Shown here: piece by piece, positions 2,310 to 30,300 of the stretch
Layout of the letters: each line of letters opens with the position of its first letter
How positions within the stretch are numbered: position 1 is the first letter of the stretch
Assembly: GCA_038227875.1 (NCBI GenBank)
Contig: JBBRPR010000067.1
Location: forward strand, 1 to 43,178
Source of the DNA: Planctomycetota bacterium
GTDB lineage: Bacteria > Planctomycetota > SZUA-567 > H5-PLA8
Length of the DNA stretch: 43,178 bases
Reading direction: 5' to 3'
Notes under the pieces: model-generated
Seen by the model: only the letters and a program-made list of their open reading frames with translations
The model's database searches: none
What the model was told of the DNA's origin: nothing
Position numbers and translations under genes: made by a program

Positions 2310-4016
2310 ATGCGCGTGTTACTTATTGCCACGGCAGTACTACTCGGATTTGCAGCCCACGCGGAAACCACCGTCTGGTGCGTCGGCGAATCCACGAAAA
2401 TAAAAGCGACCGATGCCCCGGGAAAAAGTTCGATCTGGGATGCCGCCACGCATACCGTGACACTCGGCAGCGCCCGCAACGAATACGTCGCGTTCCAGAT
2501 TGGCGTCCACGCGGATAAGGACGAACTGGCCGGCGTCACCGTCGTTCCGGCCGACTTGAAAGGGCCGGGCGGTGCCACGATCCCGGCGACGAACATCGAT
2601 CTGTTCGTCGAACACTACCTGAATGTCACGGTCTCCTCGCGCGGCGACGAGAAGTCGCCCTTCCCCGGTTGCACGACCGGAGAACATCCCACGCAAATGG
2701 TGCCGTTTGGCGCGAAAAAATTTGGCGCACCATTTACCGTTGGTGCGGGCCGCAATCAGCCGGTGTGGATCGACATTTACGTCCCCGAAGACGCCGCTCC
2801 CGGCGACTACAAAGGCACGTTCAAAGTGAAAGCCGGCGAGACCGCGCTGGGCGACGTCAACGTGGCGCTGACGGTCTGGAAATTCACACTGCCGCAAGAG
2901 ACGCATTTTCGCAGCTACCTCTATACCGGCCCGGAGAATCTGCGCTGGGGCCACCGCATCAAGGATCTCCCCAGCATCTATGATGCAAAATTTCTCGAAT
3001 TGGAAGACCATTACTTCCAGATGGCGCATCAGCACCGCTTGAATTTCCATCCTGTTGGCGGCACGGGCCTCGAGGAAGTGCTCGACCATCATTACAAATA
3101 TTACGACGGCTCCGGCTTCACCCAGCGCGTTGGCAAAGGCGTCGGTCAGAACGTCGCCTGCATCACGCCGGAAGGCAAAGACGAAGCGAGCTTCAAGAAG
3201 ATCGCCAAGGAGATCGTCGAAAAGTGGGAGCGCAAGACGCCCAAGGCGGTGCTCTTCGCGTACATGTGGGACGAACCGCATTCGCCGGAGGACTTCGCTG
3301 AATCCAAGCAGCGCTGCAAATGGGTGCACGACGCCGTCGGCAAGAAACTCCCCACGTTCATCGCCACGCCGCAGTGGCAGAAGTATGAAGCCGGCGACGT
3401 CAACTTTTACTCTGAGCCATCCGCCGAAGACATCCCCAAGATTCTCGAACGCGGCGACGCCGTCTGGGCTGTCAATGGCGGCTACGGCGGCGGACCGTAC
3501 GTCGATGCGCCGGGATACGGCGGCCGTTCAATCGTCTGGATGAACTGGAAGATGAAGCTGGCCGGCTGGCAGTTCTGGGACTGCTGCTACTGGGTCGACA
3601 AGCAGAACCGCAAACACAAGGAAGGCAAGCGCTGGGTCGGCGACATGAATTACGGGCAGATCAACGCCGATCCCGAACGCTACCTCGAAAAACTCTGGTC
3701 TGATCCGATGAACTTCGACGAAAGCCGCAAGAAAGGCTACCGCATCGCCGACGCCATCCGCATCAACGGCGACGGTCTGCTCTACTATCCCGGCTTCGAT
3801 GTCGGCATCGACGGTCCGGTCGCGAGCTTCGCCGTGAAGTCCCTGCGCCGCGGCGCCCAGGACTACGAATACCTCTGGCTGCTCAAGCAGGCCGGCAAGG
3901 AAAAGGAAACGGAAGCGATCGTCAACTCCGTCTGCCCCTCCCCCGGCAAGTGGAGCGAAGACATCGAAGCCTGGGAAAAAGCGCGCCTGGATTTGGCGGC
4001 GCTGCTGAACAAGTAG
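2310..4016 (+). CDS. Secreted DUF4091 / GH123-like glycoside hydrolase domain protein
   Basis: Signal peptide; ARNEYVAFQI, NQPVWIDIYVP..A.PG.Y.G, LTVWKFTLP, YMWDEP, NGDGLLYYPG, LRRGAQDYEYL motifs typical of DUF4091 proteins. Confidence 0.75.
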   Translation: MRVLLIATAVLLGFAAHAETTVWCVGESTKIKATDAPGKSSIWDAATHTVTLGSARNEYVAFQIGVHADKDELAGVTVVPADLKGPGGATIPATNIDLFVEHYLNVTVSSRGDEKSPFPGCTTGEHPTQMVPFGAKKFGAPFTVGAGRNQPVWIDIYVPEDAAPGDYKGTFKVKAGETALGDVNVALTVWKFTLPQETHFRSYLYTGPENLRWGHRIKDLPSIYDAKFLELEDHYFQMAHQHRLNFHPVGGTGLEEVLDHHYKYYDGSGFTQRVGKGVGQNVACITPEGKDEASFKKIAKEIVEKWERKTPKAVLFAYMWDEPHSPEDFAESKQRCKWVHDAVGKKLPTFIATPQWQKYEAGDVNFYSEPSAEDIPKILERGDAVWAVNGGYGGGPYVDAPGYGGRSIVWMNWKMKLAGWQFWDCCYWVDKQNRKHKEGKRWVGDMNYGQINADPERYLEKLWSDPMNFDESRKKGYRIADAIRINGDGLLYYPGFDVGIDGPVASFAVKSLRRGAQDYEYLWLLKQAGKEKETEAIVNSVCPSPGKWSEDIEAWEKARLDLAALLNK

Positions 4017-11908: not shown

Positions 11909-11984
11909 TGGTGCCAAGGCCCAGAATTGAACTGGGGACACCCACATTTTCAGTGTGGTGCTCTACCAACTGAGCTACCTTGGC
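11909..11984 (-). tRNA. tRNA-Phe(GAA)
   Basis: GCCAAGG TA GCTC AGTTGGTA GAGC A CCACA CTGAAAA TGTGG GTGTC CCCAG TTCAATT CTGGG CCTTGGC ACCA: canonical cloverleaf, encoded CCA. Confidence 0.97.
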
Positions 11985-18785: not shown

Positions 18786-20087
18786 CTACGGCTTTGCGTT
18801 GACGGACTCCAATAACCGGCAAAGCGCTGTTCCGTCGGACTTCTCAAACCACTTCACTCGATCCTTTCCATCGGCATCTTTGAAAAACTCGAAGTCCATT
18901 TCATTTTGATTGTCTACTCCCAAGGGGAGTAGTTCCTTCTGCACTTCCCGTTCTATGCGAATTTTCGTTGCTTCCACCATGGCATAAGTGTGAGCCGTGT
19001 GGCCTGTCTTGTCGGCAAGGGTCGCGTCAGCGTCGGCGGAGAGCAGCATTTTGACCACGTCGATTTTGCGTTGTTCGCGTGACCAGGAGCGACCTAAAAC
19101 GGCATACATTAGCGCTGAGGATCCATCGACATCCACAGCATTGACGTATGCGTCTGCATCTAACAGCATGCGCACAATTTCTGGCCAACTGGCGGCCATC
19201 ATCAGCGCTGTTTCACCTTTGTATCCCGCTAGGTTGACGTCTGCACCCGCTGCGATCCAAGCGGCTGCGACGTCTTGCATTCCGCCGGCCGATGCAATTG
19301 CCAGTCCGGTCAAGCCGTCCTCAGGGCGCCGGCAGTTAACATCAGCGCCTTGGCTAAGAAAAGTTTTGAAAAGATTGGGATTGTAGGGTGGATTGGCCGA
19401 AGACAGAAGTCCCGCGTCGATGTCACGAAGAATGGGCTCGTCGATTTTCGATCCGTCGTGAATGGCATTTAAGCTGGGAGTGGTGGCAGAATCAATTTGC
19501 GCTTCAGTTTCCCGTTGATTGTCACGTCCCTCGGAATTTGAATGTTGGACGGTTCCTGAATCGGACCGCCGGTAGTCATTGAATATCCATGCAAGGGATC
19601 GTCCGAGCAGTCGTTCGCGATTCAAAAATGTTTTAGGCAGCAGGCCGGCAATGGAAAGGCTGATAGCGGAGTCGAACGTTGTAAATACACGCCGGTTTCG
19701 GTCCTCAGTCACCGTCCAAGGAATCATGTAATCGTGTTGTGCGGAGGAATGACAGGTCACGTTACTGCCATCCTTTAGAAACAACTTGATGCGTACCACT
19801 GGGGAGTCGTCTGTCCAGTCCGAACCAAAAACTTTTTGGACCAGTTCCGGGGACATGCCGAGCAGTTTCGGGTTGGGAGCATCAAGCGGCTCGCGCTCCA
19901 ATGCTGTCAGTAACACTGAAACTGATTCCACTGAGACGAAGAGGTTTTTCAATTCAGGCGGATCTACAATGCGGAATCGATCGCCTGCCGCAAGGGCTTC
20001 GAATTTTGCGGCATGTGACGGCGGCTCGGAGAGTCCAAGCCAGTGCGAGAAAATAACGAACCGCTCAACCTCACCGCCGTGGATCAT
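18786..20087 (-). CDS. Ankyrin-repeat protein with unknown N-terminal domain
   Basis: GADVN..GLTGL, GADVNL..GETALMMA, DAYVNAVDVDGSSALMYA, DATLADKTGHTA; visibly lower GC than flanks; start uncertain. Confidence 0.8.
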   Translation of the reverse strand: MIHGGEVERFVIFSHWLGLSEPPSHAAKFEALAAGDRFRIVDPPELKNLFVSVESVSVLLTALEREPLDAPNPKLLGMSPELVQKVFGSDWTDDSPVVRIKLFLKDGSNVTCHSSAQHDYMIPWTVTEDRNRRVFTTFDSAISLSIAGLLPKTFLNRERLLGRSLAWIFNDYRRSDSGTVQHSNSEGRDNQRETEAQIDSATTPSLNAIHDGSKIDEPILRDIDAGLLSSANPPYNPNLFKTFLSQGADVNCRRPEDGLTGLAIASAGGMQDVAAAWIAAGADVNLAGYKGETALMMAASWPEIVRMLLDADAYVNAVDVDGSSALMYAVLGRSWSREQRKIDVVKMLLSADADATLADKTGHTAHTYAMVEATKIRIEREVQKELLPLGVDNQNEMDFEFFKDADGKDRVKWFEKSDGTALCRLLESVNAKP

Positions 20088-20271: not shown

Positions 20272-20655
20272 CTAGTGAAGCATCTGCTTTTCTTCTGAAC
20301 AAATGGCCGCTGGCCGCCACAACTTCAACTTTCGAAACACCCGCGCGTCCGCGCTCGGATGCACGGCCAGAGCGGTCATCGCGTGCTGCAGGTCCGGCTC
20401 GATGAAAAATTCGCTGGCGACGCCACGAGCGGTAAGCTCGCGGTGCCAACGTCTCAATTCCGGTTCGTTTTCGACGCCGAGGACGACCAGCGTTTTATGC
20501 TCGGCGGCCCAGTTGCGGACCTATGGGTCCGCGCCGTGCTTGAGCATGAATTCGGCCAGCGCGTGGGCGGTCTGGACGACCGCCTGCGCTGGGGTGAGGT
20601 CCTGGCGCGTCAGGATGTAGAGCCTGCGCGCGTTCGTCTCATCACGATTGCCCAT
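20272..20655 (-). CDS. PTH2-like (PTRHD1/phage-type) peptidyl-tRNA hydrolase interrupted by one in-frame amber TAG (codon 45, 20523-20521); recoded gene or pseudogene
   Basis: MGNRDETNARRLYILTRQDLTPAQAVVQTAHALAEFMLKHGADP*VRNWAAEHKTLVVLGVENEPELRRWHRELTARGVASEFFIEPDLQHAMTALAVHPSADARVFRKLKLW...; both halves in the same frame with PTH2-like motifs; SD GGGAGG. Confidence 0.8.
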
Positions 20656-21166
20656 GTTGCGCCTCCCGTCTGGCGGCGGTAAAGCGTTCGGCTTCCGCGA
20701 AACGTTCCGGGTCGGCCGCCAGTTCAATCAACGTGGACGAGAGCGACGCCAGCGCGCTGAAGATCAACGCAGAAGCCTTTGCGCGCGAGACGTGATGCGC
20801 AAACTTGCCAGCGCGGACGGCTTTCCGGACGTCCTTCTTCAGCGGCAGTGCGCCGTTGCCAAACTTCAGCAGATGAAGCGCCGTGAGCCAGCGCGACGCC
20901 TCCTCGCGGGCGGCGAGATACTCCGGCCAGCTGGGATGGGGCGGCGAGATGCAGGCGGTGACTTTTTCGTAGGCTTCCCAACGCTGCGTCCATCCGGCGT
21001 CGAGATCGAAGGCGCATTTGCGGCGGCACCTGAACACCGCGCCGTCGGGCGAAACGTAGACCCATTTCTGAGCCGTCTCGGATTTGAACGCGTCGGACTT
21101 CAACCGGCGAATCCGTTCGGAAACCTGAGCGACGTGGAACTGCAAGACCTGTGTAATCGTGACCAT
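20642..21166 (-). CDS. Hypothetical 174-aa protein overlapping the start of the PTH2-like gene
   Basis: Start MVTITQVL after SD GAGGAG; ends in TGA; 14-bp overlap with the downstream gene. Confidence 0.75.
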   Translation of the reverse strand: MVTITQVLQFHVAQVSERIRRLKSDAFKSETAQKWVYVSPDGAVFRCRRKCAFDLDAGWTQRWEAYEKVTACISPPHPSWPEYLAAREEASRWLTALHLLKFGNGALPLKKDVRKAVRAGKFAHHVSRAKASALIFSALASLSSTLIELAADPERFAEAERFTAARREAQHGQS

Positions 21167-21174
21167 GTGTAAAA

Positions 21175-21233
21175 CTCCTCGCAAAAAGGTTGGTTGTGAA
21201 ACTGCACGCGAACGTGGGAACCAGCCTGCGAGG
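21175..21233 (-). promoter_or_regulatory. SD-sequestering hairpin upstream of the 174-aa gene
   Basis: CCUCGCA pairs with UGCGAGG (covers GAGG of SD GAGGAG), UGGUU/AACCA, apical CACG-UUCG-CGUG. Confidence 0.7.
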
Positions 21234-21260
21234 TCACGGCGGACGGAAGACCTAGAGCAT
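21234..21260 (-). CDS. uORF2 / minigene ATG-CTC-TAG (ML*; readthrough product ML-X-VFRPP ending at TGA)
   Basis: Strong SD AAAGGAG 5 nt before ATG at 21260; TAG 21254-21252; next stop TGA 21236-21234 directly abuts the SD-sequestering hairpin. Confidence 0.6.
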
Positions 21261-21311
21261 GGCGTCTCCTTTCGGATGGCTTGGAATGTGTAAGTGAGAA
21301 TGGATGCGCGC

Positions 21312-21348
21312 AAAAACAAAAAGGCCAACGGGAACGCCGCTGACCTTT
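21312..21348 (-). terminator. Intrinsic terminator/attenuator inside the leader
   Basis: AAAGGTCAGCGG-CGTTC-CCGTTGGCCTTT followed by TTGTTTTT. Confidence 0.8.
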
Positions 21349-21383
21349 AGTTTATGAGGTGTGGAAGGGGTGTGGAAAGAGAT

Positions 21384-21401
21384 CTAGAGAAAACCGCGCA
21401 T
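21384..21401 (-). CDS. uORF1 leader peptide MRGFL* ending in TAG
   Basis: SD AAAGGA 6 nt before ATG CGC GGT TTT CTC TAG; the frame stays open past the TAG through the terminator and is in frame with uORF2. Confidence 0.55.
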   Translation of the reverse strand: MRGFL

Positions 21402-21435
21402 CGTTAGTCCTTTGAGTTGCCTGCTTATGCACTTA

Positions 21436-21464
21436 CCTATACCTCGCGAAAAGCAGGAAGTCAA
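21436..21464 (-). promoter_or_regulatory. Candidate sigma-70 promoter for the leader, immediately 3' of the CUA tRNA
   Basis: TTGACT-N17-TATAGG on the minus strand. Confidence 0.5.
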
Positions 21465-21468
21465 ATTT

Positions 21469-21544
21469 TGGTGGCCCCGGCGGGAGTCTCACCCGCAACC
21501 GCAAGCTTTAGAGGCGAGCTGCTCTGGAATTGAGCTACGGGACC
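21469..21544 (-). tRNA. Atypical tRNA with CUA anticodon (amber suppressor / tRNA-Pyl-like)
   Basis: GGTCCCG TA GCTC AATTCCA GAGC A GCTCGC CTCTAAA GCTTGC GGTT GCGGG TGAGACT CCCGC CGGGGCC ACCA: 76 nt, paired acceptor, D and T stems, encoded CCA, loop CU-CUA-AA. Anticodon stem has two pyrimidine mismatches, D-loop lacks GG, T-loop lacks TTC. Confidence 0.85.
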
Positions 21545-21548
21545 GCGT

Positions 21549-21583
21549 TGGGGTTAGTGAACCCCATGAGAGGAGGTTGTCAA
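21549..21583 (-). promoter_or_regulatory. Promoter of the CUA tRNA with operator-like palindrome over the -10 region
   Basis: TTGACA at 21583-21578; TGGGGTT-CACT-AACCCCA inverted repeat at 21566-21549; -10 match is weak. Confidence 0.6.
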
Positions 21584-21624
21584 GGGTGACGTGATCGCGA
21601 CATTCGACTCATCGCGACTCGCCG

Positions 21625-27354: not shown

Positions 27355-30300
27355 ATGCGCTACGCAGTCCTTCTACTGATTCTAACCACGGCGCTGCGGG
27401 CCGCCGATCTATCTACCATTACGACTCTTGGCGGCGCGCATTTAAATAACGGCGGCACCGCGTCAAACGCGCAACTCTGCCGGCCATTTGGCGTCTCGGT
27501 CGATTCGTCCACCGGGAAGATTTACGTCGCCGACCGCAATAATGCCCTGGTCCGCGTGATCGATCAATCGACGGGCAAAATTGATGTAATCGCCGGAACC
27601 AACATTGAAGGCTACAACGGTGAAGGCACCGCAACAACCCGGCGGCTCCACAATCCGCAGGGCGTCTGCGTCGCCAATGGCAATGTTTACATTGCCGATT
27701 CCGACAACAACCGTATTCGAAAAGTCGACAGCGGCGGAACAATTTCCACTGTGGCGGGAAATGGCGTGCCTGCCTATTCTGGCGACACGCTCGCCGCCAC
27801 CAGCGCCAGCATGTTCTTTCCCGAAGGTGTCGCCGTGGACGGTGCGGGCGTGATGTACATTGCCGATACGCTCAACAACCGCATCCGCATGGTCGATGCG
27901 GGTGGAACCATCACTACAATCTGCGGAACAGGAGCAGCGGATTACACGGGCGACAACGGACAGGCCACCGCCGCCACGTTGAACACGCCCACGCGTGTGG
28001 CGTTGGATGGCAACGGCCATCTGCTGATCGCCGACTCCGTCAACAACGCGCTGCGCCAGATCGATCTCACGACCCACGTGATCACCACGATTTTCACCGA
28101 TACCGCCGTCGTCGATGTCGGCGCGGATGGCAGCGGAAACATCTACGTTGCCACCGATTCCCAGATCAAGCGCATCGACCACACGGACAGCAGCGTCTCG
28201 GTCGTGGCTGGAGACGCGACGACCAATCCCGGCAACAGCGTCGATGGCCCGGCGACCGCCACGGGACTCTGGCCGACCGGGATTTCCGTCTCATCCGCGG
28301 GTGACCTCTACCTCGTGGAAGAAACCTACAGCCGCCTGCGCAAAATCTCCGGCGGCAACATCTCGACGCTGGTGGGCGGTTCAAGCGGCGATGGGGGGTC
28401 GGCGCTGGGCGCCAACTTCGTGCGCGTGATCGGCCTGAAAGGCGACAACGCGGGGAACGTCTATCTGCCGGATTTTCACGGCAATCGCGTGCGTAAGATC
28501 GATTCCGGCGGCACGATCACCACGTTCGCCGGCACGGGCGTAAACGGTTCTCTAGGCGACGGCGGTCCGGCAGCGTTGGCACAGCTGAAACTGCCCGCGG
28601 ATGTCGTCGTCGATTCCCGCGGCAATGTGTTTATTTCCGAAGTCGGCGCCGGACGCATCCGCAAAGTGGCCGCGTCCGACGGTTCCACCAGCACCTTCGC
28701 CACGGGATTGGGAGATTGCTACGCGCTGGCAATCGATGGCGCCGACAATATTTATGTGGCCAGCTACACAAGCAGCGTCGTCACTAAGATTACTCCGGGC
28801 GGTACTGTCATTCCGTTCGCCGGTGTATTTGGAAATACTGGATACAACGGCGACAATATGCAGGCCACGTCCGCATTCCTGAATTTCCCGCTGGGTCTGG
28901 CCGCGGATGCGGCGGGGAATGTGTTTATCGTCGACCTGGTGAATTCACGCATCCGCAAGGTGGATCTGACCGGAAAGATCACAACCATCGCCGGCACCGG
29001 CGTCGACGGTTACAGCGGCGACGGCATTGCCGCGACGTCGGCTAAAATCAACAGTCCGCGCAGCGTCGCGGTCGACGGCGCTGGGCGGATCTACATCGCC
29101 GACTCTCAAAACCACCGCATCCGAAAAATTGAGAACGGTATCATCAGCACGATTGTTGGAGGTAACGGGCAGGGACTCGCCGGCGATGGCGGACCCGGCA
29201 CCGCCGCCACGATCGATTTTCCATGGGGCATTTACAGCAATCTTGCGGGCACGGCGTTGTACTTCTGGGATTGGAATCGGTACTGCGTCCGCAAAGTCAC
29301 GCGGCCCGATCCCGGCCCTCTGGCGTACGACGGCGTTCTCACCACGAACAAGAACATACCGCAGACCGGCACCCTGGTGGGTAAAGATGGGGATGCCCAC
29401 CCGCTGACGTATTCCATCGTGACCAACGGCGGAAAGGGATCGGCCAACATTACCAATACTGCGACGGGCGCGTACTCCTACACGCCCAATTTCAACGCCT
29501 CGGGCACCGATACCTTCACCTTCAAGGTGAATGACGGCACCCTGGATTCAAATACCGCAACAATTACTGTAACAATCACGGCACTTAATAACGCGCCGAT
29601 CGCCAGCAACGGCACGCTCACCACCAATGAGGACACCGCCAAGACCGGAACACTGAGCGCCAGTGACGTCGATGCCAATCCGCTGACGTACACCATTGTC
29701 GCGAACGGAACGAAGGGCAGCGCCGTGATCACCAACGCCGCTACCGGAGCGTATACGTACACGCCCAACACCGATGCAAACGGCGCGGATTCCTTCACGT
29801 TCAAAGCCAATGACGGCTCGGTCGATTCCAACATCGCGACCGTGAATGTCACGATCACACCCGTTAACGACGCACCCGTCGCCAGCAACGGTACGCTCAC
29901 TACCACTGAAGACACGGCCAAGACCGGAACACTGAGCGCTAGCGACGTCGATGCCAATCCGTTGACCTACACCATTGTCGCGAACGGAACGAAGGGCAGC
30001 GCCGTGATCACCAACGCCGCTACCGGAGCGTATACGTACACGCCCAACACCGATGCAAACGGCGCGGATTCGTTTACGTTCAAAGCCAATGACGGCTCGG
30101 TCGATTCCAACATCGCGACCGTGAATGTCACGATCACACCCGTTAACGACGCGCCCGTCGCCAGCAACGGTATGCTCACCACGAATGAGGACACCGCCAA
30201 ATCTGGAACACTGAGCGCCAGTGACGTCGAATCTGATCCGCTTTCGTACACCATCGTGACGAACGGAACGAAGGGCAGCGCCGTGATCACCAACGCCGCT

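Follow-up and report, generated by a model that had tools for sequence, protein, structure and literature searches.

A putative three-amber module with a co-encoded tRNA(CUA) in a Planctomycetota genome

Introduction

Attenuators built around leader open reading frames (ORFs) sense amino-acid supply, nucleotides or antibiotics, and we know of none that senses a stop codon being read as sense. The trp, his and leu attenuators follow the supply of charged tRNA through stalling at sense codons and possess a conserved antiterminator/terminator alternative, pyrBI senses UTP-dependent pausing of the polymerase with a leader ORF that is an ordinary sense frame, and prfB, which encodes RF2, senses release-factor activity at UGA through +1 frameshifting within the gene. 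Here we describe a module of ~1.35 kb on contig JBBRPR010000067.1 of a Planctomycetota bacterium (assembly GCA_038227875.1), analysed within a stretch of 43,178 nucleotides (nt) that covers positions 1 to 43,178 of that contig and is called the window below. A tRNA gene with the anticodon CUA is followed there by a leader carrying two short upstream ORFs (uORFs) that end in amber codons, by a gene for an uncharacterised protein of 174 amino acids (aa; ORF174) and by a PTH2-like gene that is interrupted by a third in-frame amber. From this arrangement we tentatively propose that the leader and the PTH2-like gene form a three-amber gate, which would tie the expression of both protein genes to the activity of the co-encoded suppressor.

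By analogy, such a module would work like a pyrBI-type attenuator followed by an ermC-type attenuator, with amber suppression as the input. As in pyrBI, a short leader ORF is placed so that translation into a terminator hairpin would block its folding, and the distance between the point where the ribosome stops and the hairpin would decide termination (pyrBI comparison of Roland et al., cited in PMC4824070); here, however, the frame reaches the hairpin only upon amber suppression. In the trp, his and leu attenuators, as at this locus, regulatory codons lie in a leader ORF close to the promoter, and an intrinsic terminator separates that ORF from the structural genes, but the regulatory codon in the present case is a stop read by a dedicated tRNA, and no conserved antiterminator was found. 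The second uORF resembles the leaders of ermC/secM attenuation, in which a ribosome held on a uORF covers one strand of a helix that sequesters a Shine–Dalgarno (SD) sequence, with the difference that the putative arrest site would be reachable only after amber suppression and would involve a nascent chain of 8 residues. A cis element that gauges stop-codon decoding sets expression in prfB and would do so here, but at this locus a suppressor tRNA would compete at UAG, and the proposed outputs are terminator bypass and unmasking of an SD.

Comparable logic has been built synthetically. An engineered transcriptional switch for an unnatural amino acid places TAG in a tna/trp-type leader, and multiplexing the TAGs cuts its leak, as described in sections of PMC6412442; engineered feed-forward circuits in which suppressor tRNA and target are induced together are described in PMC7969014. 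The likeness lies in target transcription that needs leader translation beyond UAG and in several UAGs placed in series, whereas those circuits are synthetic and use orthogonal synthetase/tRNA pairs and Rho/rut, and the present module is natural and carries an intrinsic terminator. In TAG-recoded phages (code 15), suppressor tRNAs are proposed to time late genes (bioRxiv 10.1101/2021.08.26.457843), and there too a suppressor tRNA is encoded beside genes that need in-frame TAG decoding; dozens of genes are recoded in those large phage genomes, however, whereas the locus described here is a cellular module of three genes whose three ambers include two in the leader. A search of open-access papers and bioRxiv returned engineered versions but no natural amber-suppression attenuator.

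Results and discussion

The features of the module all lie on the minus strand of the window, in the order P1, tRNA(CUA), P2, leader, ORF174 and PTH2-like gene, P1 and P2 being promoter-like sites. The same module is present in a metagenomic contig (L010), in which the counterpart of ORF174 shares 49% protein identity. An alpha/beta-hydrolase gene (22959-21625) lies upstream and an ankyrin protein gene downstream in the window, and a methyltransferase upstream and PrkA downstream in L010. Judged from these two sequences, the module is conserved as a unit amid different neighbours. The DNA comparison comprised these two diverged loci together with near-identical strain variants from sequencing runs, and the run comparison drew on 4 of the 12 listed runs, eleven of which have small shares (X3, X4, X6, X8 and X10-X12 excluded), with most of the stretch uncovered.

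The candidate amber suppressor is encoded 68 nt upstream of the ATG of the first uORF (uORF1), which supplies the suppressor that a first-pass annotation of the window had postulated. This tRNA gene (21469..21544; ARAGORN and Rfam) carries the anticodon CUA, discriminator A73 and an encoded CCA, scores 40.5 bits against the Rfam tRNA model (gathering score 29) and is the only one among the 81 tRNAs of the genome with a CUA anticodon. It has the form of a canonical elongator with regard to its cloverleaf with a 7/5 acceptor/T-arm, 7-nt anticodon loop and encoded CCA. Several departures from the usual shape are common to both loci, namely a D-loop without GG (no G18-G19), a T-loop reading TGAGACT and two consecutive pyrimidine mismatches in the anticodon stem. 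The L010 tRNA is identical over 52 nt and carries a compensatory change in the acceptor stem (G2:C71 to C2:G71). Among the other tRNAs of the host, tRNA-Trp(CCA) comes closest and shares 55 identical positions with the 76-nt CUA tRNA, an identity too low for the amino acid of tRNA(CUA) to be assigned from likeness.

Both promoter-like sites have counterparts in L010. P1 (21555..21583), read from the sequence upstream of the tRNA, is weak (TTGACA, 17 nt, TCACTA; TTGACT-17-TTTATT in L010). TTGAC-type sites occur upstream of 7 of the 81 tRNA genes of the genome, compared with 0.25% of random 120-mers, and P1 itself fails the pattern used for that genome-wide count. P2 (21436..21464), which begins 5 nt past the 3′ end of the tRNA, reads TTGACT, 17 nt, TATAGG, and its equivalent in L010 (TTGACA-17-TATAGA) keeps the hexamers and the 17-nt spacing around an unrelated spacer sequence. 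A consensus promoter scanner passed over P2 because position 6 of its -10 hexamer is not T.

Downstream of P2, the leader opens with an SD-like AAAGGA (21408..21413; CAAAGGA kept in L010) and uORF1 (21384..21401), which reads ATG CGC GGT TTT CTC TAG and thus encodes MRGFL before amber 1. The equivalent in L010, ATG AGC GGT TTC TTG TAG, encodes MSGFL and ends in the same stop; 3 of the 4 nucleotide changes between the two are synonymous (TTT>TTC and the two-base CTC>TTG). Amber 1 is followed by a 35-nt spacer (21349..21383) that contains no G, 16 C and two copies of TTCCACACC, and then by an intrinsic terminator (21311..21348), recovered by a terminator scan and by folding, with a 12-bp stem, a 5-nt loop and a U-tract. 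The stem (21348-21320) has 6 G-C among its 12 pairs and is followed by TTGTTTTTGC. L010 keeps the stem core and the U-tract, a G>A change making a G-U pair A-U, and the hairpin energies are -16.6 kcal/mol in the window and -10.0 kcal/mol in L010. The length class of the spacer is also kept, amber 1 lying 38 nt from the GGTCA core of the hairpin in the window and 35 nt in L010; the spacer sequence is not conserved. Thus uORF1 is a conserved amber-terminated leader ORF placed ~35-38 nt before a conserved intrinsic terminator, and the elements listed in the first-pass annotation (SD, uORF1, spacer with repeat, 12-bp terminator and open frame) are all present on the minus strand where it had put them.

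On the window alone, the case for uORF1 and the terminator against chance is weak, a terminator scan of 2.1 kb giving 2 sites compared with 2.6 expected in shuffles and an ORF of 5 codons arising easily. The layout rises above chance because of the comparison with L010, in which the SD, ATG, MxGFL, TAG, terminator, open frame and phase are all kept. In both loci, a leader ORF with an SD and a start codon lies between the predicted promoter P2 and the structural gene, and an intrinsic terminator, with no promoter after it, lies between the leader ORF and the structural genes. Since no promoter-like block is conserved from the terminator to ORF174 in the two-locus alignment, the mRNA of the protein genes must cross the hairpin, which is therefore not merely the terminator of the tRNA transcript, the outcome that the first-pass annotation had named as the alternative to its proposal. 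In a strain variant of ~96% identity (X2), 4 changes are listed for 21278-21442, of which one falls in the hairpin loop and three fall in the spacer; the SD, uORF1 and stem are unchanged and, by codon reading, no stop is created.

Past amber 1 the frame remains open through the hairpin for 41 codons (21261..21383) and arrives in phase at the ATG of the second uORF (uORF2; 21260), a path that had already been traced in the first-pass annotation and that recurs in L010. Translation from 21401 gives MRGFL, stop, ISFHTPSTPHKLKVSGVPVGLFVFARIHSHLHIPSHPKGDAML, stop, VFRPP, stop in the window, and MSGFL, stop, 43 aa followed by ML, stop, VFRPP, stop in L010, where 43 codons are open and in phase with uORF2; the segments from TAG to ATG measure 123 nt and 129 nt, respectively. 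Codon phase across the hairpin agrees between the loci (GTC AGC GGC ... GTT GGC in the window, GTC AAC GGA ... GTT GGC in L010), and the other two frames through the leader segment contain one stop each. The leader frame therefore enters the terminator in the manner of pyrBI, in the amber read-through frame only. Dinucleotide shuffles leave the frame open in 53% of cases for the window (41 codons) and 35% for L010, and conservation of the frame beyond chance is, on these sequences, suggestive, not overwhelming. The read-through peptide is unconserved except for the parts encoded by the terminator and the SD, but the frame is kept, which argues that the act of translation is conserved and not its product.

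The uORF2 block (21227..21270) is strictly preserved, with 43 nt identical in L010 (GGAGACGCC ATG CTC TAG GTC TTC CGT CCG CCG TGA CCTCGCA), in contrast to the 49% protein identity of ORF174. Behind its SD (AGGAGAC GCC ATG CTC TAG), uORF2 encodes ML before amber 2 (21254-21252). Read-through at this codon would add the extension GTC TTC CGT CCG CCG TGA (VFRPP), whose UGA stop (21236-21234) is followed directly on its 3′ side by an anti-SD, CCTCGCA (21233-21227). When either locus is folded, the anti-SD pairs with the ORF174 SD (21175..21183; TGCGAGGAG), which is itself kept in L010. The CCUCGCA:UGCGAGG helix gains further pairs at each locus, GG:CC in the window and AAAG:CUUU in L010, with duplex energies of -18.8 and -18.5 kcal/mol, respectively. 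At both loci, the SD of ORF174 is thus sequestered by a helix whose other strand lies directly after a UGA, as in ermC/secM-type attenuation. The UAG of amber 2 lies 18 nt upstream of the anti-SD and the UGA of the extension adjoins it; we infer that release at amber 2 would leave the anti-SD uncovered, and that a ribosome held at Pro-Pro-UGA would cover it. Pro-Pro-stop slows ribosomes, which is the basis for the putative arrest at VFRPP-UGA. In E. coli, C-terminal poly-Pro lowers termination efficiency most, according to the account in PMC6412442.

ORF174 (20642..21166) encodes a 174-aa protein of an uncharacterised family with 7 close relatives in a large protein collection and 96 clusters by profile, some of the more distant members coming from Acidobacteriota metagenome-assembled genomes. 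It has no match to a Pfam, PHROG, NCBIfam or PADLOC family. Its AlphaFold model has a predicted local distance difference test (pLDDT) score of 87.3; Foldseek against the PDB returned no match at E <= 0.001, the best VIA-align match (Z 6.2) is within noise for helical models, and the ESM Atlas gave no usable match.

The third amber lies within the PTH2-like gene (20272..20655; 127 codons), which overlaps the end of ORF174 by 14 nt. Its in-frame TAG (20523-20521; CCA TAG GTC CGC) is found at the same codon in L010, is kept in a 94% variant (run X9) and is spanned by the match to PF01981 (33.1 bits, cut-off 23; residues 36-130, profile positions 3-105 of 115). The protein falls below the NCBIfam equivalog cut-offs (24.8 vs 126) and so belongs to a distant PTH2 subfamily, which keeps invariant D19, H31, D88 and T94, presumably the catalytic residues. 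Short N-terminal fragments of PTH2-like proteins (33-46 aa) end at this same codon in 6/6 cases, with the sequence ...HGxDP; the six include those of the window and of L010 themselves. Two of the fragments share their source with the ORF174 relatives P0006 and P0007, which suggests that they come from the same contigs. More distant full-length relatives have Q or A at this codon, and the closest unsplit relative points to Q as a guess for the residue inserted at the amber. The conserved amber and the fragments ending at it therefore indicate that the interruption is programmed and not a pseudogene lesion. At both loci each of the gate ambers, six in total, has a purine as its next base (GTC in 5 cases, ATC in 1). 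The PTH2-like gene of the window itself ends in TAG followed by C (20274-20272), TAG-C being the commonest TAG-stop context in the genome (455/1224), and the true stop of the L010 gene is TGA. The gates at amber 2 and amber 3 were absent from the first-pass annotation and are structurally clearer than the terminator step.

Based on these features, the proposed three-amber gate could operate as follows. Co-transcriptional antitermination at amber 1 is a plausible but far from assured first step, in which release at amber 1 would leave the ribosome 35-38 nt before the hairpin, allowing the terminator to form and to end both the tRNA transcript and the leader transcript, whereas decoding of amber 1 by tRNA(CUA) would carry the ribosome into the 5′ arm of the hairpin and suppress termination. 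This would be direct occlusion of the pyrBI type and would probably need a polymerase pause. For the E. coli terminator tR2, a ribosome at a stop codon ~30 bp away no longer represses termination, as reported in PMC4824070, and the gap between amber 1 and the hairpin lies just past that limit. In a second step, the same ribosome, or one that starts at the uORF2 SD, would reach amber 2, where release would leave the anti-SD:SD helix intact; read-through would add VFRPP, and the slowly terminating ribosome on the anti-SD would free the SD of ORF174. The PTH2-like gene would then be translated by coupling to ORF174, a third suppression event being required for its completion. In the last and weakest step, the PTH2-like hydrolase might deacylate the suppressor as negative feedback or, alternatively, clear peptidyl-tRNA arising from unwanted read-through, and in both cases the output of the remedy would scale with suppression; the role of the hydrolase in feedback or clean-up is conjecture.

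Several observations weigh against this proposal, the first of them kinetic. The hairpin starts only 53 nt past the AUG of uORF1, and decoding of amber 1 would add delay. In E. coli, an account in PMC4824070 describes terminators within the initial 100 bp of coding sequence as barely repressed by translation unless a pause synchronises ribosome and polymerase, and a terminator 30 bp past the start as losing only ~10% of its efficiency through translation. The folds of the two loci contain no conserved antiterminator or pause hairpin, and the leader of the window is no more stable than its shuffles (uORF1 part, z -1.0; uORF2 part, z -0.2). The L010 leader reaches z -2.5 and z -2.4 for the same parts, and its uORF1 start forms a strong helix with the nucleotides immediately ahead of the terminator; the window has no such helix. 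For the attenuator put forward in the first-pass annotation, the conserved layout, frame and spacing speak in its favour, and the kinetic problem and the want of a conserved antiterminator fold against it. The joint chance of open in-phase frames at both loci is ~0.02, which combines the shuffle values (0.53 and 0.35) with a 1/3 probability of the right phase at each locus, and is not tiny. The arrest at VFRPP follows from general knowledge of ribosomes, and its nascent chain would be just 8 residues long. The tRNA is odd in its two anticodon-stem mismatches, its missing GG/T-psi-C elbow and its score of only 40.5 bits. Efficient suppression would also read the TAG that ends the PTH2-like gene of the window and add 48 codons (20274-20128), an extension that the TGA stop avoids in L010. 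Finally, the DNA comparison is limited to two diverged loci and one near-identical strain variant, and a single contig from an RNA library (X5), which may be DNA carry-over, spans 20887-21153 only and is uninformative on transcription, transcript ends or strand.

Two pairings that involve the uORF1 start region were observed in the leader. The SD region of uORF1 (21416-21400; AAAGGACUAACG) resembles the 5′ arm of the terminator (AAAGGUCAGCGG) and pairs with its 3′ arm and U-tract (21331-21311) at -12.9 kcal/mol in the window and -10.2 kcal/mol in L010; with two sequences only, this pairing is a possible antiterminator. The start region of uORF1 (21406-21390) pairs with sequence beyond the U-tract (21312-21285) through AUGCGCG:CGCGCAU, at -15.6 kcal/mol in the window (0.4% of shuffles as good) and -12.2 kcal/mol in L010 (7.7%). 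In the corresponding L010 pairing (3755-3771 with 3836-3865), the opposite strand carries a change that matches CGC>AGC in uORF1. This second pairing would hide the uORF1 AUG on read-through transcripts.

Among the other explanations, the one that survives best, although we consider it rather unlikely, is that the leader acts only in translation. A somewhat leaky constitutive terminator would mainly end the tRNA transcript and set a high ratio of tRNA to mRNA, and the two-amber leader would act after transcription; suppression would be sensed and termination would not be modulated. Ribosomes reading through would melt the hairpin, reach or stall at RPP-UGA and open the SD of ORF174. Such a relay fits the same conserved features, draws on the strong and perfectly conserved SD of uORF2 and on the anti-SD geometry, which is the clearest structural element of the leader, and sidesteps the kinetic problem of a terminator 53-90 nt past a start codon (discussed for E. 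coli in PMC4824070). However, it leaves unexplained why uORF1 and its SD are kept at 35-38 nt before the hairpin and why a promoter-like site precedes the terminator, and under it uORF1 and its in-phase path are conserved though dispensable if uORF2 initiates alone.

An improbable alternative is polarity through Rho, in which release at amber 1 would expose C-rich, G-poor RNA that read-through ribosomes would otherwise cover, Rho would terminate transcription within the leader or beyond it, and the hairpin would serve the tRNA only. The spacer of the window is G-free with 16 C in 35 nt, and an engineered TAG-in-leader switch acts through an unmasked rut site, as presented in part of PMC6412442. 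The tract is short, however, and the rut-like character and direct repeat that the first-pass annotation had pointed to are not shared by L010, whose spacer contains 5 G and no TTCCACACC repeat; the conserved element is the intrinsic terminator and not the tract.

We give similarly little weight to the explanation that uORF1 is untranslated or non-regulatory, the block being kept as RNA or DNA (for instance as a tRNA 3′-trailer site or a long-range helix) and only ambers 2 and 3 acting as gates. In its favour, uORF1 has just five codons and a modest SD, its start region pairs with the sequence past the U-tract in both loci, and two loci only are compared. Against it, the Phe and Leu codons have changed synonymously with the peptide kept, indels have disturbed neither the frame nor its phase through the hairpin, and the stop is TAG in both loci, matching the tRNA of the module. 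The terminator moreover lies 120 nt past the end of tRNA(CUA), whereas 6 of the 9 terminators detected behind tRNA genes of this genome lie at 16-31 nt.

The code of the host bears on how a suppressor could be borne by the cell. The genome is a 9.3-Mb draft of ~60% GC in 176 contigs with a completeness of 88.1%. TAG terminates 1224 of its 4780 gene-like ORFs (~26%), and it encodes an RF1-like gene (372 bits). With TAG in use as an ordinary stop alongside an RF1-like gene, a suppressor needs tight control in this host. Coding-looking in-frame continuations number 82 for TAG, 107 for TAA and 70 for TGA, and thus there is no TAG excess. Five of the TAG continuations have GTC as the next codon, one of them being a shadow frame in the window at 29969. 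The one TAG-GTC candidate that was inspected (L018; C18:117600-119800) was rejected, as it reads as two ordinary genes. These are tandem D-2-hydroxyacid-dehydrogenase-like genes in the same frame with CCA TAG GTC between them, the flanking bases being those of amber 3.

A tRNA-Pyl has one base between the acceptor and D stems, a very short D-loop and a 3-nt variable loop. ARAGORN draws tRNA(CUA) with two bases, TA, behind the acceptor stem, a D-loop of 7 nt and a variable region of 4 nt, a misfit to this shape. It is highly improbable that tRNA(CUA) is part of a pyrrolysine-type system or of a TAG reassignment, whether genome-wide or of the phage type, with the uORFs incidental: ARAGORN names the gene tRNA-Pyl from its anticodon, the tRNA is without a GG/T-psi-C elbow and a 6-bp anticodon stem can be drawn, but TIGR02367 (PylS) has 0 matches in the genome at its 88.1% completeness, TAG serves as a stop beside an RF1-like gene and without excess, the inspected candidate is two adjacent genes, and no match was found in viral contigs, phages or plasmids. 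Together, the TAG stops, the RF1-like gene, the absence of a PylS match and of a TAG excess imply that the suppressor competes with normal termination in a standard-code cell.

A broader reading of the three-amber gate, which we regard as doubtful, is that of a portable conditional genetic-code module, combining an unusual suppressor tRNA with a three-amber sensor of its own decoding. ORF174 might then charge, modify or deliver the tRNA, and the PTH2-like protein might limit or clean up suppression. If the three-amber gate operates as proposed, it would be the first natural transcription/translation attenuator with stop-codon suppression as its input, and evolution would have reached multiplexed-TAG and feed-forward designs independently of synthetic biology. 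It would also show how an amber suppressor can be carried safely where 26% of stops are TAG and an RF1-like gene is encoded: suppression would be gauged at three ambers in series, and a tRNA hydrolase would be made according to the outcome. The module would further offer a natural tRNA(CUA) in which elbow and anticodon stem are rewired, and a compact part for synthetic circuits; TAG-GTC would be a candidate for a preferred suppression context, and the uncharacterised 96-cluster family would gain a functional lead.

The module was sought in further genomes and collections. In the same lineage, the DNA of 21230-21600 gave matches in 4 of 60 relatives, all of them unrelated tRNAs. None of 300 genomes of the phylum had a match to ORF174 and none of 400 a match to its family profile, and the PTH2-like protein had two marginal matches only in 300. 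Metagenome contigs yielded at least one locus, L010. Representative genomes gave no match in a protein-pattern scan and one chance match to a 19-nt anticodon-arm pattern (L011), at which there is no tRNA. The collections of viral contigs, phages and plasmids that were searched contained no match to the module.

Downstream of the module, the ankyrin-repeat gene (18786-20087, minus strand) matches the PADLOC candidate defence model PDC-M72A (E 2e-18) and sits in a stretch of lower G+C (0.53-0.55). This gene is absent from L010 and therefore lies outside the module.

Other tRNA genes were also observed in the window and the host genome. A tRNA-Phe(GAA) gene (11909-11984, minus strand) is preceded at 13 nt by a TTGACA-type promoter-like site and followed at 26 nt by a terminator, a layout that is ordinary for the tRNAs of this genome and from which that of the CUA tRNA differs. 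ARAGORN called two tRNA-Sec(UCA) genes in the genome (C13:840-935 and C47:42458-42548). In a relative of the same order, 17 tRNA genes lie within 2 kb (L002, G017:C267; an unpublished genome, for which publication requires the permission of the depositors). Within the host genome, contig C25 (~17.4-21.8 kb and beyond) carries an array of ~30 of the 81 tRNA genes, several of them non-canonical, with no encoded CCA and odd acceptor ends, which resembles the tRNA arrays of mobile elements and phages.

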